Source: Deltaproteobacteria bacterium
Lineage (GTDB): Bacteria > Myxococcota > Kuafuiibacteriia > Kuafuiibacteriales > Kuafuiibacteriaceae
Reading direction: 5' to 3'
Assembly: GCA_040218735.1 (NCBI GenBank)
Contig: JAVJQW010000027.1
Span: 27,134-91,133, forward strand
DNA length: 64,000 nucleotides
The number at the start of each line of letters is the position of its first letter. The first letter of the stretch is position 1. Under the pieces are notes generated by a model. The model was not told where the DNA came from. It saw only the letters and a program-made list of their open reading frames with translations, and searched no databases. Positions 1-62,501 of this stretch are shown piece by piece. A program made the position numbers and the translations under genes.

Positions 1-840
1 AACGGCGATGAGGTCGCCGCCGCGGTGCGGGGGAGCGCCGGTGAGCATGTGATGGAGCAGGCCGCCGAGGAGGTACACGTCGGTGCGTGGTCCGACGTAA
101 CCCGCGGTCGCGTCGATCATCTCCGGTGCGAGGTACGCGGGTGTCCCGACGAGCGCCATGGGGCGCCCGGCTTCGCGGTCGTCGCGGAGGTCGTCGATGC
201 GCACCGCGATGCCCCAGTCCAGGAGGTAGACCTCGCCGAAGTCACCGACCATGACGTTCTCGGGTTTGATGTCGCGGTGGAGGTAGCCGTGCCGGTGCGC
301 GAAGTGCACCGCGTTGGCGACCTGCATGAGCACTTGCAGGCACCAGTCGAGGCGCGCGCCGCGGACCATCGCCCAGCGCGCGTGGTCGGGGTCGTCGAGC
401 ATCGACGACAGCGGGGTGCCGTCGATGCGTTTCATCATCAGCAGCGGCCGGCCGTCGACGTCGCGGCCGAGGAGGTGCACCGGCGGGATGTTCGGGTGTT
501 CCAGCGCGCCGATGATGCGGGCTTCGCGGAGGAGGCCGGCGCGTGCGCCGGGGGAGTGGAGCTCGTGCAGGCGTTTGACGGCGACTTCGCGACCGAGCGC
601 GACTTGCCACGCGCTGCGGACGACGCCCATGCCGCCGCGCCCTAGCTCCCGTCCGAGGATCAGCTCGGTGGTCCTGAGGTCCGCGTCGCGTTCGCCGACG
701 CGGACCGCGGTGAGCGGCTCGTCCTCCGGGAACATCGGCGTCGGTGCGGGACGGATGGAGAGGAGCGGGTCGGCGGACTGGTGGGTGTCGAGGAGGCCGA
801 CGTCGTCGAGGGCGGTGCGGATCGTCTCCTCGTAGGACAC
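1..840 (-). CDS. Ser/Thr protein kinase, N-terminal part; runs off the left edge
   Basis: My minus-strand translation gives VHFAHRHGYLHRDIKPENVMVGDFGEVYLLDWGIA, plus LGRGGMGVV, AKS and GTPAYLAPE. Absent from the ORF track because it has no stop in the window. Start approximate (GTG/TTG at 840-849). Confidence 0.9.
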   Translation of the reverse strand, partial: MSYEETIRTALDDVGLLDTHQSADPLLSIRPAPTPMFPEDEPLTAVRVGERDADLRTTELILGRELGRGGMGVVRSAWQVALGREVAVKRLHELHSPGARAGLLREARIIGALEHPNIPPVHLLGRDVDGRPLLMMKRIDGTPLSSMLDDPDHARWAMVRGARLDWCLQVLMQVANAVHFAHRHGYLHRDIKPENVMVGDFGEVYLLDWGIAVRIDDLRDDREAGRPMALVGTPAYLAPEMIDATAGYVGPRTDVYLLGGLLHHMLTGAPPHRGGDLIAV

Positions 841-58481: not shown

Positions 58482-59147
58482 TCACTCGAACGCGTCGTCG
58501 GGCCAACCGTCGCGGAGGTCTTCGGGCACCGGCGCCGTCCACGTCTGTTCGCCGCACGACACCCGCCACGCGTGCAGCAGCTGTCGATCCCCGACGGGGC
58601 GACCGTAGTTCTTGTCGCCGCGCACCGGGTGGCCGCGGTGCGCGAGGTGCAGGCGGATCTGATGCGTGCGGCCCGTCGAGATCCGCACGGACAACAGGCT
58701 CGCCTCTTTCCGAACCAAGAGAGGGGTGACGAACGTGTGCGTGGGGCGGCCTTCGCGAACGACGCGCGGCTGTCCGTCCACGCGCTCGATCGGCGCGACG
58801 ATCGTCTCCTCGCCGCGGGGCCAAGCGCCGTCGACCACCGCGACGTAGGTCTTGGTCCCGACCCTCAGGTGTCGCGACCACGTGTCGACGAGCGCTCGGC
58901 GCCGGACGAAGAGGTTCACGCCAGTGGTCTCGCGATCGAGCTGGTGCACCGCCCAGATCTTTCGCTTCGTGTGCGCCATCAACTGGGCCTGCAGGCAGTC
59001 CGGATCGTCGAGGTCGCGGCCCGTGCTCGGGAGGTGCGCGGGTTTGTTGCAGACGATCAGCCCGTCGCTCTCGTGGAGGATCGCGGGCGGGAACGCGGGG
59101 TGGGCCTGCGCCGATTCGAACAGCCGCGGGTCGAGTCGCCAGGCCAC
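58482..59147 (-). CDS. RluA-family RNA pseudouridine synthase
   Basis: NKPAHL, HQLDRETTG, KTY, TGRTHQIRLH, LLHA. Confidence 0.9.
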   Translation of the reverse strand: MAWRLDPRLFESAQAHPAFPPAILHESDGLIVCNKPAHLPSTGRDLDDPDCLQAQLMAHTKRKIWAVHQLDRETTGVNLFVRRRALVDTWSRHLRVGTKTYVAVVDGAWPRGEETIVAPIERVDGQPRVVREGRPTHTFVTPLLVRKEASLLSVRISTGRTHQIRLHLAHRGHPVRGDKNYGRPVGDRQLLHAWRVSCGEQTWTAPVPEDLRDGWPDDAFE

Positions 59148-59149
59148 GG

Positions 59150-59497
59150 CTACTTCGCACACCGCAGGCAGAACGGTGCCTCGGGCTTCGCCTTCAGCCG
59201 GCGGTACGCGATCGGCTCCTCGCACCGAAGGCAAAGGCCGTAGTCCCCTTCTTCGACCCGGCGGAGCGCCTGCCCTGCGAGCTGACGCCGAGTCTTCATC
59301 GCCTCGCGCGACGCTTGTGCGAGCTTCTGGCGCTGGAGGGCGTCGATGCGACTGACGCGGCCGACCGCAGCCTGGTCGAGCTCGACCGTCTGCACGCTCT
59401 CGGCCGCGTCTTCGATCGTCGTGTCCAGCGCAGCGATGAGCGCGCGCAGGTCCTCGGCGAGCTCCGCCGTCTGCGCTTCGTTCAGCTCCTCGCTCAT
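59150..59497 (-). CDS. TraR/DksA C4 zinc-finger protein
   Basis: YGLCLRCEEPIAYRRLKAKPEAPFCLRC; VGRVSRIDAL. Confidence 0.92.
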   Translation of the reverse strand: MSEELNEAQTAELAEDLRALIAALDTTIEDAAESVQTVELDQAAVGRVSRIDALQRQKLAQASREAMKTRRQLAGQALRRVEEGDYGLCLRCEEPIAYRRLKAKPEAPFCLRCAK

Positions 59498-59510: not shown

Positions 59511-60719
59511 TTACGACTTTTCGACGAACGCCGCGAGCGCGTCCCGCGCGGCGCGCTCACCCGCGAGGAGTGATGTGAGCCGTTCGTGGAGTCGCCCGCG
59601 CAGCTCGGCAGCGAAGGCCGCGTCGAGCGCGTCGTTGGCCGCGTCCTCGAGCGCCGCGAGCGCACGCGGGTCCGTCGGCGACCCCTTCGCGAGGAGCTTC
59701 TTCGCGCGACCGAGCACCGGCGGGCCCGCGAACACGTCGTCCACGAGTCCACGCCACGCCTCGCCGTTGGCTTCGACGACCGCCGCGGCTTCGACGAGCG
59801 CGGGTGCCTTCGTCGCGCGGAGGAACTCGGCGTACATCGGGCGGAAGCCGGCGCCGTCCGTGGAGGCGTGCACCCACGCGTAGATCTGACGGAGCCCGCC
59901 GAGCAGTCCGTAACCCGCGCCGAACAGCCGCGGCCACCCCTTGGCGTCGCCGTCGTCGTCGACCAGGCGCGTCCACTTCTCGAGCGCGGCGAGGCCGAAG
60001 TTCTTCTTGGAGCCGCCGAGCACGACCTCGCCGTCGAGGTCCGCGACACATCGGCGGACGGCGATACGAACCGCGTCGTCGTTCGGCGCGCGGCGCTCGC
60101 CCAGTCCGACGATGCGGTGTTTCTGTTTCTTCACCGCGGCGCGGGCCGCGGCGAGCCTGTCGAGCGGCACTTCGATCGCGCCGGCGCGGCAGTCCTCGAC
60201 GCCCGCGACGCCGTCCTCGACGTCGTGCACCACGACCACCCACGGCGTCGCGCCGCCCATCGCGTCGAGGCCGAGCAGCGCCTCGCGTCCGACCCAGCAG
60301 ATCACCGGCCCGGCTTCGAGTGCTTCGAGGAGCTGGCGCTCGGCCTTCTTCGCGGACGTCGCTTCGGCGACGACGGCCTCGTAGCCGAGCCCGTCGAGCG
60401 CGCGCTCCACGAACGTCGCGTCGTAGGCGTACTGCGGGTTGCAGCGCGTACCGATGTACACGAGCGGCGGGGCGCCCGCGTACGTGAACGCGTGGTACTG
60501 AAAGCTCACGCCGCCGCCGAGCCCGAGGAGCCACGCTTCGCTCGGTGCGTCGGGGCCCGCGAGGAGGCGCGTCAGCGCAAACGTTTGATCGTGTCGGGCG
60601 CGGGGCGGTGACTTCTTCGCGAGCTCACCGAGCAGCGCTGCGCGCGCGGTCGCGTAGCGCTCTTGGGTGCGCGCCATGCGGGCACGGACGATCTTCTTGA
60701 AGGCACGGTCGCGGGTCAT
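59511..60719 (-). CDS. BtrH N-terminal/DUF4872-like protein with a basic N-terminal helical extension
   Basis: SEAWLLGLGGGVSFQY, LEAGPVICWV, GFRPMYAEFL; N-terminus MTRDRAFKKIVRARMARTQERYATARAALL. Confidence 0.8.
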   Translation of the reverse strand: MTRDRAFKKIVRARMARTQERYATARAALLGELAKKSPPRARHDQTFALTRLLAGPDAPSEAWLLGLGGGVSFQYHAFTYAGAPPLVYIGTRCNPQYAYDATFVERALDGLGYEAVVAEATSAKKAERQLLEALEAGPVICWVGREALLGLDAMGGATPWVVVVHDVEDGVAGVEDCRAGAIEVPLDRLAAARAAVKKQKHRIVGLGERRAPNDDAVRIAVRRCVADLDGEVVLGGSKKNFGLAALEKWTRLVDDDGDAKGWPRLFGAGYGLLGGLRQIYAWVHASTDGAGFRPMYAEFLRATKAPALVEAAAVVEANGEAWRGLVDDVFAGPPVLGRAKKLLAKGSPTDPRALAALEDAANDALDAAFAAELRGRLHERLTSLLAGERAARDALAAFVEKS

Positions 60720-60900
60720 GTCGAATCCTCTTCTGTCGCCACCGACACGCCGGTCCTGCCCCCGTCCGCGCCCGGACGTTCGAAAAGGTTCGAGTACCGC
60801 TCACCCGAGGATTTCGCTCCCCTTTGCCGCCTCCGGGGGCCCTGGCAGGCGGGCCGCGTGCGGTTGGGCGCGGGTGATGCGCCGCCGACGAGGCTACGCG
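60720..60900 (-). ncRNA. putative structured cis-regulatory 5' leader RNA
   Basis: Nested stems UCACCCG/CGGGUGA, CCGCCU/AGGCGG, GGGGA/UCCUC, UCGAA/UUCGA, CGUCCG/CGGACG; alternative AAUCCUC/GAGGAUU pairing over the SD. Confidence 0.6.
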
Positions 60901-60966
60901 CCGCGCGTCGTGATTCGCAAGGGGCGGGTGGACGAACCGCGGACGAGTCGTCATGCTGAGGGCGTC

Positions 60967-61124
60967 GTGAACCGTCTCCAGCCCCGCATCGCCGCTATGG
61001 CCATGCCCCGCCCGCGCCGGGCGGTCCGGGCTGGAGCACGCTGACCGCGAGCTCCTCTCGGTCCCCGGGCGCGGGCCTATCCCGCCGCCGCTCATCACCC
61101 GGGACCGAACGAAGGAGCTTCGCC
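60967..61124 (+). promoter_or_regulatory. metG leader: uORF plus RBS-sequestering multibranch hairpin
   Basis: uORF 60967-61044 (..AAMAMP..); GAGCTCCT/AGGAGCTT and TCGGTCCC(C)GGG/CCCGGGACCGA stems; unpaired CTCATCA. Confidence 0.6.
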
Positions 61125-62501
61125 ATGACGACCTATCTGATCACCAATGCCATCGCTTATGTGAACGGGCCGCCGCACCTCGGCCACACCGTGGGCCTGC
61201 TGCAGGCCGACGTACTCGCGCGGCAGGCGCGCGCCGCCGGCCACGAGGTGCGCCTCACCACCGGCACTGACGAGAACAGCCTCAAGAACGTGCGCGCCGC
61301 CGAGGCCGCTGGGGTCTCGGTGCGTTCGCTCGTCGACGAAAACGCCGCGCGGTTCCGCGCGCTCGAAGAGCGCCTCGGTGTCGCTTCGGACTGCTTCGTC
61401 CGCACGGCGGACGCGAATCACGCCGCGGTCGTCGAGCAGCTCTGGCGGGCGTGTGCCGACGACCTCTACCGCCGGAGTTACCGCGGCCTGTACTGCGTGG
61501 GGTGCGAGCAGTTCTTCGCGGAGGCGGACCTGGAAGACGGCGTGTGCCCGGAGCACCGCGTCGCGCCCGAGCTCGTCGAGGAGGAGAACTGGTTCTTCCG
61601 TTTGTCGAAGTACCGAGACGTTCTACTCGAGCGAATCGAGTCCGACGCGATCCGGATCCGCCCCGAGAAACACCGTCGCGCGATCCTCGCGTTCCTCGCG
61701 GGCGGGCTGGAGGACCTCAGCGTCTCCCGCTCCGTCGAACGCGCGCGAGGGTGGGGCGTCCCGGTGCCGGACGACCCCTCGCAGGTCGTCTACGTCTGGT
61801 TCGACGCGCTCGCGAACTACTTCACGAGCGACCCGGACTACTGGCGTCGCGCCGACGAACGCATCCACGTGATCGGGAAGGGCATCACCCGGTTCCACGC
61901 GGTGTACTGGCCGGCGATCCTCCTCGCCGCGGGTGAGCCGCTCCCGACGTGTATCTACGTGCACGACTACATCACGGTCGAGGGCAACAAGATCGGCAAG
62001 TCGCTCGGCAACGTCGTCGACCCCGACGCGATCGTCGACACCTTCGGCACGGAGGCGCTCCGCTACTACCTGTTGCGTCACCTCCGCGCGACGAGCGACG
62101 GCGACTTCTCGCGGGAGCGTCTGGTGACCGCTCGCAACACCGAGCTCGCGGACCGGCTCGGGAACCTCTTGTCGCGCACCACGAAGCTCGCGTCGAAACA
62201 CGATGGGGTACCCGCGGCGGCGCCCGATCTGTCGGAGGCCGCGCCCTTCGACACCGCGGGGGGCCTCGACGCGATCTTCGCGGAGGTCGACGCGCTCAAC
62301 CGCTTCGTCGACGCCGAGGCGCCGTGGAAGTTGCTGAAGTCCGACCGGGCGCGCGGTGAAGCGGTCGTGGCGGAGGCGCTCGGACGCATCGCAGCGATCG
62401 GCCGCGCGCTCGCGCCGTACCTGCCGGCGACGGCGGCGAGGATCGAAGCGGCGCTCGCCGTCCCGGTCCGCGCGGCGCCCCCGCTGTTCCCTAAGACTTA
62501 G
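61125..62501 (+). CDS. metG: methionyl-tRNA synthetase, short form
   Basis: YVNGPPHLGH (HIGH), TGTDE, CVGC..CPEH knuckle, YVWFDALANY, HAVYWP, KIGKS (KMSKS-like); AAGGAG RBS. Confidence 0.93.
   Translation: MTTYLITNAIAYVNGPPHLGHTVGLLQADVLARQARAAGHEVRLTTGTDENSLKNVRAAEAAGVSVRSLVDENAARFRALEERLGVASDCFVRTADANHAAVVEQLWRACADDLYRRSYRGLYCVGCEQFFAEADLEDGVCPEHRVAPELVEEENWFFRLSKYRDVLLERIESDAIRIRPEKHRRAILAFLAGGLEDLSVSRSVERARGWGVPVPDDPSQVVYVWFDALANYFTSDPDYWRRADERIHVIGKGITRFHAVYWPAILLAAGEPLPTCIYVHDYITVEGNKIGKSLGNVVDPDAIVDTFGTEALRYYLLRHLRATSDGDFSRERLVTARNTELADRLGNLLSRTTKLASKHDGVPAAAPDLSEAAPFDTAGGLDAIFAEVDALNRFVDAEAPWKLLKSDRARGEAVVAEALGRIAAIGRALAPYLPATAARIEAALAVPVRAAPPLFPKT

Follow-up and report, generated by a model that had tools for sequence, protein, structure and literature searches.

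A covarying 5' leader RNA coupled to a basic N-terminal tag on unrelated bacterial proteins: candidate autogenous or riboswitch-like control

The 5' leader of a BtrH-like gene from a deltaproteobacterium (GenBank assembly GCA_040218735.1, contig JAVJQW010000027.1) was analyzed within a 64-kb stretch of DNA, here called the window; all coordinates are positions in this stretch, which belongs to an 11.6-Mb genome. The gene (59511..60719, minus strand) is an open reading frame (ORF) for a protein of 402 amino acids whose N-terminus reads MTRDRAFKKIVRARMARTQERYATARAALL. The first 30 or so residues are basic and rich in Arg and Lys, and are referred to here as the tag. Upstream of the start codon lies a structured RNA whose helices covary among related loci, and this RNA occurs together with the tag, nearly one to one, in front of otherwise unrelated proteins. 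That the leader RNA is real and is coupled to the tag we regard as virtually certain. We describe the finding as autogenous or riboswitch-like leader control; a portable cassette made of RNA plus peptide is the bold reading of it. The two elements are arranged as follows.

60720 to 60889, minus strand: the whole 5' leader RNA, with an aptamer-like core (60889-60797) and a hairpin domain that sequesters the Shine-Dalgarno (SD) sequence (60796-60720), from the covariance model and alignments
60612 to 60719, minus strand: start codon (60719-60717) and tag coding region, residues 1-36, from alignments and AlphaFold2

A covariance model of the leader, R1, was built, and searches were run both RNA-first and tag-first. 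R1 matches the window at 60797-60889 on the minus strand (50.2 bits), its sole match at E<=1 in the 64 kb. The first-look filters scored 29-150 candidates per genome, so that weak copies can be missed. Within that limit the genome surveys gave the following counts.

Own 11.6-Mb genome (150 of about 25,000 first-look candidates scored): two R1 matches and two strong tags, at the same two loci
Five other genomes: eight R1 matches and eight strong tags, pairwise adjacent, three of them outside the training set
An actinobacterial order, 121 genomes: ten R1 matches in eight genomes, all ten adjoining a tag
Myxococcota, 141 genomes: twelve R1 matches in seven genomes, all twelve adjoining a tag

All 27 distinct matches found RNA-first have a tag 65-116 nucleotides (nt) downstream on the same strand. 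Searching from the tag, the RNA was present at 82 of 83 genomic loci (8 of 9 among those outside the training set) and at 71 of 80 independent metagenome loci, always on the strand of the gene. In six of the nine metagenome misses the contig extends less than 130 nt upstream, two (L134 and L128) have a weak match at the right place, and one (L114) has none. Four tags in the clade surveys that had no RNA under the strict filters were rescored with the filters off and gave 43, 24.8, 22.1 and 19.6 bits where the RNA would be expected. The spacing is also regular: in 156 of 158 model matches the tag starts 59-133 nt past the core, with a median of 76. At locus L135 (RNA 1012-1103, tag start 1501) the gap is about 400 nt. 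The leader is thus found with the gene of its presumed binder, as is expected of an autogenous leader.

Some 150 related loci carry the leader. They come from at least six phyla, among them Actinomycetota, Chloroflexota, Myxococcota, Planctomycetota, Acidobacteriota and Gemmatimonadota. When the 300-nt regions upstream of 83 tag genes were compared, 21 contained GGCAAAGGGG and 30 contained GGCAAAGG, in a constant position, and the window leader aligns at this site to loci from other phyla. The core contains four helices, a pseudoknot and a junction, and one of its loops takes part in a second tertiary contact.

60867 to 60883, minus strand: P1 hairpin, GGCGC (60883-60879) with GCGCC (60871-60867), its loop holding the 5' strand of pseudoknot PK1, from alignments
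60801 to 60877, minus strand: pseudoknot PK1, UCACCC (60877-60872) with GGGUGA (60806-60801), joining the P1 loop to the 3' flank of P4, from covariation
60827 to 60863, minus strand: P2, CCGC (60863-60860) with GCGG (60830-60827), enclosing P3, from covariation
60838 to 60855, minus strand: P3 hairpin, GGCCC (60855-60851) with GGGCC (60842-60838), from covariation
60843 to 60850, minus strand: P3 loop GCCUGCCA, with the 5' strand of the kissing contact PK2, CCUGCC (60849-60844), from loop classes
60821 to 60826, minus strand: junction CAAAGG, both G's of which open P4, invariant or nearly so in the columns of alignment A3
60807 to 60822, minus strand: P4 hairpin, GGGGA (60822-60818), loop GCGAAA, UCCUC (60811-60807), from covariation

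Two alignments were used to assess these pairings, A3 with 74 leader sequences and A5 with 71 independent metagenome instances aligned by fitting to the model. In A3, 87.8% of 1923 cells are paired, as against 44-51% with slid partners, and 316 cells carry double changes, as against 44-123. The covariation score is 0.419, compared with 0.09-0.13, and none of 500 shuffles reached it; compensatory changes are seen in 19 of the 27 pairs. A5 gave 95.0% paired cells (37-56% with slid partners) and 200 double-change cells (5-53). Individual elements contribute unequally. P1 is paired in 89.2% of cells in A3 and 93.8% in A5 and is nearly invariant, and therefore shows little covariation. In PK1, changes on both sides occur in all six pairs (A3), with variants such as GCCGG/CCGGC, CCUGUG/CACAGG, UCCUCC/GGAGGA and ACCCGC/GCGGGU, and the mean Watson-Crick run is 4.18 with a strand's own partner and 3.12 with swapped partners. 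P2 is 98.9% paired in A3, with both-side changes in four of five pairs, and 98.8% paired in A5. Both-side changes were found in all six P3 pairs in A5 and, for P4 (96.7% paired), in three of five pairs in A3. One G-U pair of P4 is retained in 68 of the 73 rows of A3 and 58 of the 69 rows of A5; since the opposite strand would have C and A mismatched at this position, the conserved element is RNA of the gene's strand. The leader therefore holds a conserved, covarying structured domain, the kind of domain by which riboswitch classes are recognized.

Statistics on the single sequence gave a different picture. The minimum free energy (MFE) of 60700-60900 is -89.6 kcal/mol, whereas shuffles average -92.7 +/- 4.85 (z +0.64), and 145 of 200 shuffles fold as well as or better than the window leader. 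This result, together with a -10-like hexamer that abuts the element, could be taken to mean that the element works at the DNA level, as an operator, promoter feature or mobile-element end, or is a chance similarity between G+C-rich sequences. We consider such an explanation extremely improbable. Compensatory changes and the retained G-U pair are properties of RNA, every match lies on the strand of its gene, and R1 is sparing in its matches, one in the window and two in the genome under the candidate limit given above. Since covariation supports the structure, fold energy of a single sequence is an uninformative measure at 77% G+C. There is a caution about method in this: fold statistics for one sequence dismissed a structure that is established by covariation.

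Searches against known families returned little. With Rfam 15, positions 60400-61400 of the window had only four matches at E<=10, all to microRNA or internal ribosome entry site families and at 13-21 bits, against gathering thresholds of 60-100. At E<=1, the same database gave nothing on the leader in 14 related loci, with no partial match to ribosomal RNA (rRNA), transfer RNA (tRNA) or any other family. In one of the loci, L041 (Chloroflexia), the leader is preceded, at a distance of about 1.1 kb, by a tRNA gene (117-189, plus strand, 72 bits). A strict scan of the window leader region for sigma-70 promoters and terminators found no sites.

Downstream of the core, the remainder of the leader folds into a long hairpin that buries the SD sequence and presents a loop to P3. 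The hairpin and a candidate promoter 5' to the core are located as follows.

60721 to 60793, minus strand: long 3' hairpin, the expression platform, from constrained MFE folds and own-versus-swapped tests
60782 to 60793 with 60721 to 60733, minus strand: basal stem, the upstream arm containing the anti-SD CCUUUUC and the downstream arm the SD GAGGA (60730-60726), from constrained MFE folds
60755 to 60760, minus strand: 3' strand of PK2, GGCAGG, in the apical loop 60761-60754, pairing with the P3 loop, from the own-versus-swapped test
60891 to 60920, minus strand: candidate promoter, TTGCGA (60920-60915), an 18-nt spacer and TAGCCT (60896-60891), from reading of the sequence

Own partners form a perfect PK2 run of 6 nt or more in 126 of 146 distinct instances, swapped partners in 395 of 2920 pairs; 98 of the 146 have a run of 7 nt or more, the P3 loop itself being 7 nt long. 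The loop and its partner change together, the classes being CCCACGC/GCGUGGG, CUCACGC/GCGUGAG, CCCCAGC/GCUGGGG and CCUGCGC/GCGCAGG, with CCUGCC/GGCAGG in the window. The downstream strand starts a median of 40 nt before the AUG (interquartile range 38-42), and 136 of 145 constrained MFE folds place it in a hairpin loop, one of 7 nt in 85 of them, although the constraint partly favours a loop. The base of the hairpin pairs the SD region with an upstream segment resembling CCUUUC. For the duplex between the 5' arm and the region from SD to AUG, the energy is -20.2 kcal/mol with the own partner and -15.4 with swapped partners (Mann-Whitney p 4e-27, with relatedness ignored), and in 124 of 136 MFE folds half or more of the SD is paired. 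Folding of the entire 3' domain was needed to reveal the long hairpin; Alifold on short 3' segments grouped by loop class gave no consensus. On these computational grounds, an expression platform is coupled to a putative sensing domain, the arrangement found in riboswitch classes.

Of 149 distinct instances, 113 have a TANNNT hexamer whose start lies 12-15 nt ahead of P1. From this fixed distance, the transcript probably begins at P1 or just 5' of it. A closing helix 5' to P1, P0, had at first been read from few sequences and was dropped, because the -10-like hexamer lies there and the bases are probably not transcribed. Within the core, the invariant CAAAGGGG (60826-60818 in the window) is itself SD-like and has its complement in the CCUUU within the anti-SD segment (60788-60782). 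When the core is unfolded, CAAAGGGG could compete for the anti-SD, an idea for the 'on' state that comes from complementarity.

Since known RNA thermometers work through hairpins that sequester the SD, and some of the proteins encoded downstream carry chaperone-related domains, the leader might be a ligand-free sensor, that is a thermometer or a general stress structure, with the tag unrelated to it. This appears very unlikely to us. Known thermometers are simple hairpins; such a role would give none to the double tertiary contact and the invariant junction, and would leave the strict coupling to the tag unexplained.

An earlier note on this DNA, made from the window sequence alone, had proposed a switch-like leader, and the comparative data allow its pairings to be sorted. 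Every string that it quoted is found on the minus strand where it was placed. Its hairpin GGGGA-GCGAAA-UCCUC corresponds to the conserved helix P4 in the comparative alignments, and its CAAA linker is part of the invariant CAAAGG. The predicted core motif GGCAAAGGGG proved to be conserved, with the exact matches counted above. UCACCC/GGGUGA, described as a closing stem, is a genuine covarying pairing and forms PK1. The hairpin CCGCCU/AGGCGG has no comparative support and is replaced in the family by CCGC/GCGG (P2) around GGCCC/GGGCC (P3). Two mutually exclusive pairings had been suggested as the switch. Both can be drawn in the window and both lack comparative support. For the first, GGCGC is present downstream in 42 of 147 loci, against 48.1 +/- 5.5 in shuffles. 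For the second, in which the P4 3' strand covers the SD, the mean run is 4.06 with the own SD and 4.28 with the SDs of other loci. The conserved platform is instead the different, long SD-sequestering hairpin that kisses the P3 loop. The note had named folding no better than shuffles as grounds for giving up the structure, and the window leader, taken singly, does fold no better; it had also called for covariation upstream of tag genes, and there a conserved covarying structure is present. Its statement that the RNA could not be assigned to a named riboswitch agrees with the Rfam 15 result.

The tag begins the protein in 98 of 102 homologues. Sixteen columns are invariant in a family alignment of 37 sequences, and eight of them fall within the first 25 residues: K8, R12, R14, M15, T18, E20, Y22 and A25. 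The same eight residues are invariant across 151 distinct tag-coding regions, in which third codon positions are free, as at R12, R14 and A25 (1.35-1.66 bits). Selection here therefore acts on the peptide and not on RNA. In the AlphaFold2 model, residues 2-18 and 22-36 are helices separated by a turn, so that the tag is predicted to be a helical hairpin (helix-turn-helix). No family in Pfam-A or NCBIfam matched residues 1-45 at E<=10, no PDB sequence matched the tag profile at E<=10, and the protein atlas held no usable match for the tag. A complex prediction of the tag as a homodimer gave a score of 0.09, which is no answer and speaks neither for nor against a dimer. In its N-terminal position, protein-level conservation, basic character and predicted helical hairpin, the tag has the look of a small unit for RNA binding.

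A 36-column profile of the tag found 4181 representative clusters at E<=0.001 among 1.84 billion proteins, 953 of them at E<=1e-10, and in 133 of the 150 best profile matches the tag stands at residue 1. The remainder of these proteins is diverse. Among 78 tag-bearing representatives of at least 120 amino acids, Pfam assigned BtrH_N (24), DUF4872 (9), AHSA1 (6), DUF4287 (3) and WD40 (2), with single cases of Peptidase_M1, PG_binding_1, DnaJ and Abhydrolase_1. Among 71 metagenome ORFs with the tag it assigned BtrH_N (20), AHSA1 (18), DUF4287 (17), DUF4872 (16), Clp_N (7) and UVR (3), and DUF2087, HEAT and DUF1835 once each. The tag is thus fused to at least eight unrelated Pfam architectures in at least six phyla. 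The earlier note had mentioned similar N-termini on unrelated proteins; the profile search and the Pfam assignments bear this out, and its idea of a portable module is strongly supported by the nearly one-to-one occurrence of the covarying leader with the tag across these architectures and phyla. The window genome has exactly one more copy of the module, a leader followed by the tag on a DUF4287/AHSA1 protein (contig G000:C56, locus L002; RNA 1680-1770 and ORF 925-1605, both on the minus strand). At two loci with a leader upstream (L117, 357-635, and L139, 1202-1483), complete ORFs of 93-94 amino acids consist of the tag and a short acidic tail; they may be free-standing tag proteins.

The tag is the sole feature that the downstream proteins share, and no common metabolic, pathway or transport theme of the sort that a riboswitch regulon has was found among them. 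This bears on a further explanation, a riboswitch for a small molecule or ion, in which ligand bound in the P1-P4 core would set the kissing contact and access to the SD, the tag having a separate job, such as docking the proteins to a common partner, and travelling with the leader because only about 75 nt lie between them. The architecture is riboswitch-like, with a covarying multi-helix core, pseudoknots, an invariant junction and an SD platform, and the RNA is widespread yet patchy, being present in 15 of the 262 genomes of the two clade samples. However, in known riboswitch classes the regulated genes share a pathway and not an N-terminal peptide; here all 27 RNA-first matches precede a tag, and neither a metabolic theme nor an Rfam match was found. 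We judge a ligand riboswitch to be unlikely, though it is the chief alternative.

We favour, tentatively and with confidence slightly short of even for the whole mechanism including binding, the reading of leader and tag as a portable cassette for autogenous translational control. A freshly made tag would bind the folded core or the kissing complex of its own leader, and also any sister leader in the cell. Binding would stabilize the hairpin that hides the ribosome-binding site, and synthesis would be turned off once enough protein had been made; when protein is scarce, the hairpin would breathe and translation would resume. This is preferred to a ligand riboswitch because the tag is all that the downstream genes have in common and the RNA did not turn up anywhere without it. 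With its fixed spacing of the kissing strand and its buried SD, the geometry suits a translational off-switch.

Several points weigh against autogenous control by the tag. We infer binding from coupling, and mere adjacency could let tag and leader travel together during domain shuffling. The core has two tertiary contacts, and few of its unpaired bases are invariant; in this it resembles a metabolite aptamer no less than a site for a protein. Tags without detectable RNA are found at L075, L114 and G187:C109, and the RNA matches at L128, L134, L194, L196 and L198 are weak (16-25 bits). Moreover, the own-versus-swapped statistics ignore kinship between loci and so overstate significance.

The same coupling of RNA and tag would be seen if the two formed a lasting ribonucleoprotein during translation, with the leader as a scaffold, chaperone or localisation element, or if the leader mimicked another RNA, such as rRNA, to which the tag normally binds, feedback not being the main purpose. 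Several cargo domains (Clp_N, DnaJ, AHSA1 and aminopeptidases) are tied to protein quality control, which would accord with such a role. Against it, the family keeps the SD buried and holds its spacing to the AUG constant, which indicates control of initiation, and the Rfam scans of the leaders detected no partial rRNA, tRNA or other match. This explanation seems to us improbable.

The boldest form of autogenous control is a transferable cassette in which a leader of about 170 nt, with its pseudoknot and kissing loop, and a 30-residue peptide recognize each other. Any protein that gained it would become self-limiting or be loaded onto its own mRNA during synthesis, and evolution would have placed it on at least eight unrelated protein families in six or more phyla. 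This reading is possible and a shade more doubtful than the mechanism itself.

The protein that carries the tag in the window has a body that resembles carrier-protein-dependent transacylases.

59511 to 60611, minus strand: protein body, BtrH_N plus DUF4872, papain/C39-like fold, from Pfam, AlphaFold2 and Foldseek

In the 402-residue protein, Pfam placed BtrH_N at residues 58-148 (34.2 bits, cut-off 29.7) and DUF4872 at residues 189-325 (34.2 bits, cut-off 28). The AlphaFold2 model has a mean pLDDT (predicted local distance difference test) of 91.8, and the solved structures that Foldseek places closest to it are AziU3/U2 (8gs1, E 8.7e-9), CcbD (9dks, E 3.3e-6) and CtaG (9qvq). By these domains and folds, the body is like the transacylases BtrH, AziU3, CcbD and CtaG. 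The tag is absent from the solved relatives. As to the catalytic Cys/His of the papain-like transacylases, the window family has no Cys or His among its invariant or nearly invariant columns (37-sequence alignment). The window protein body may be non-catalytic or may rely on other residues. A profile alignment to PDB sequences left the N-terminal lobe of the body uncovered. PDB titles for CtaG and CcbD include Cys-to-Ala/Ser and His-to-Ala variants.

The BtrH-like gene is separated by a spacer of 405 bp from the divergent metG (methionyl-tRNA synthetase, 61125..62501, plus strand), and no RNA family match was found in this spacer. On the other side, an ORF for a DksA/TraR C4 zinc-finger protein (115 amino acids, 59150-59497, minus strand) begins 13 nt past the stop of the BtrH-like gene, and it is overlapped by the next ORF, for an RluA-type pseudouridine synthase (58482-59234, minus strand). 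The three ORFs may form one operon under the leader. An all-versus-all blastp of six-frame ORFs around the loci found no common partner gene, in output swamped by alternative frames of G+C-rich genes, and PADLOC assigned none of five proteins to a defence family.

The leader and the tag have no match in Rfam 15, Pfam-A, NCBIfam or PDB. Full-text searches returned no paper on the leader RNA or the tag within the library searched, and a publication outside that library is possible. If the tag binds the leader, the pair would be the first natural plug-in autoregulation cassette, usable with any cargo, as well as a new class of peptide-RNA recognition and a compact part for synthetic biology. If the RNA responds to a ligand instead, it would represent a new and widespread orphan riboswitch class whose genes oddly share an N-terminal mini-domain. 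Either way, 4181 representative protein clusters, and a leader that spans six phyla, are without a family record in the databases searched.

Compared with known systems, the arrangement resembles in outline the autogenous repressors, exemplified by the leaders of L1, S8, S15 and L20 and by the ThrRS operator. These likewise have a structured 5' leader, act on access to the ribosome-binding site and show strict co-occurrence of RNA and protein. Their binder is a dedicated RNA-binding protein, however, whereas the presumed binder here is a 30-residue tag on unrelated enzymes, and no rRNA or tRNA mimicry was seen in the leader by the Rfam scans. The translational riboswitches (the purine riboswitch with its L2-L3 kiss, ZTP and SAM-II) share with the leader a covarying core, tertiary contacts, an invariant junction and an SD-sequestering helix; they differ in that the genes downstream of the present leader share an encoded peptide and no pathway theme, and in that the leader has no match in Rfam 15.

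In the arginine-rich peptide-RNA pairs lambda N-boxB and HIV Tat-TAR and Rev-RRE, and in the CAT domain-RAT RNA pair of BglG/SacY, a short basic N-terminal segment recognizes a structured leader RNA, as the tag is presumed to do. The RNAs of these pairs are single hairpins and their peptides belong to one family and act on transcription, whereas the present RNA is about 170 nt long with two tertiary contacts and the tag stands on many families. Finally, Rop/Rom of ColE1, which acts with the RNA I-RNA II kiss, combines a helical-hairpin protein with a kissing RNA of 7 bp between loops. This likeness is pure analogy, as there is no sequence relation and the tag helices are about half as long; but because the loop sequences of the leader are free to covary, any recognition by the tag would, as with Rop, be of shape rather than of sequence.

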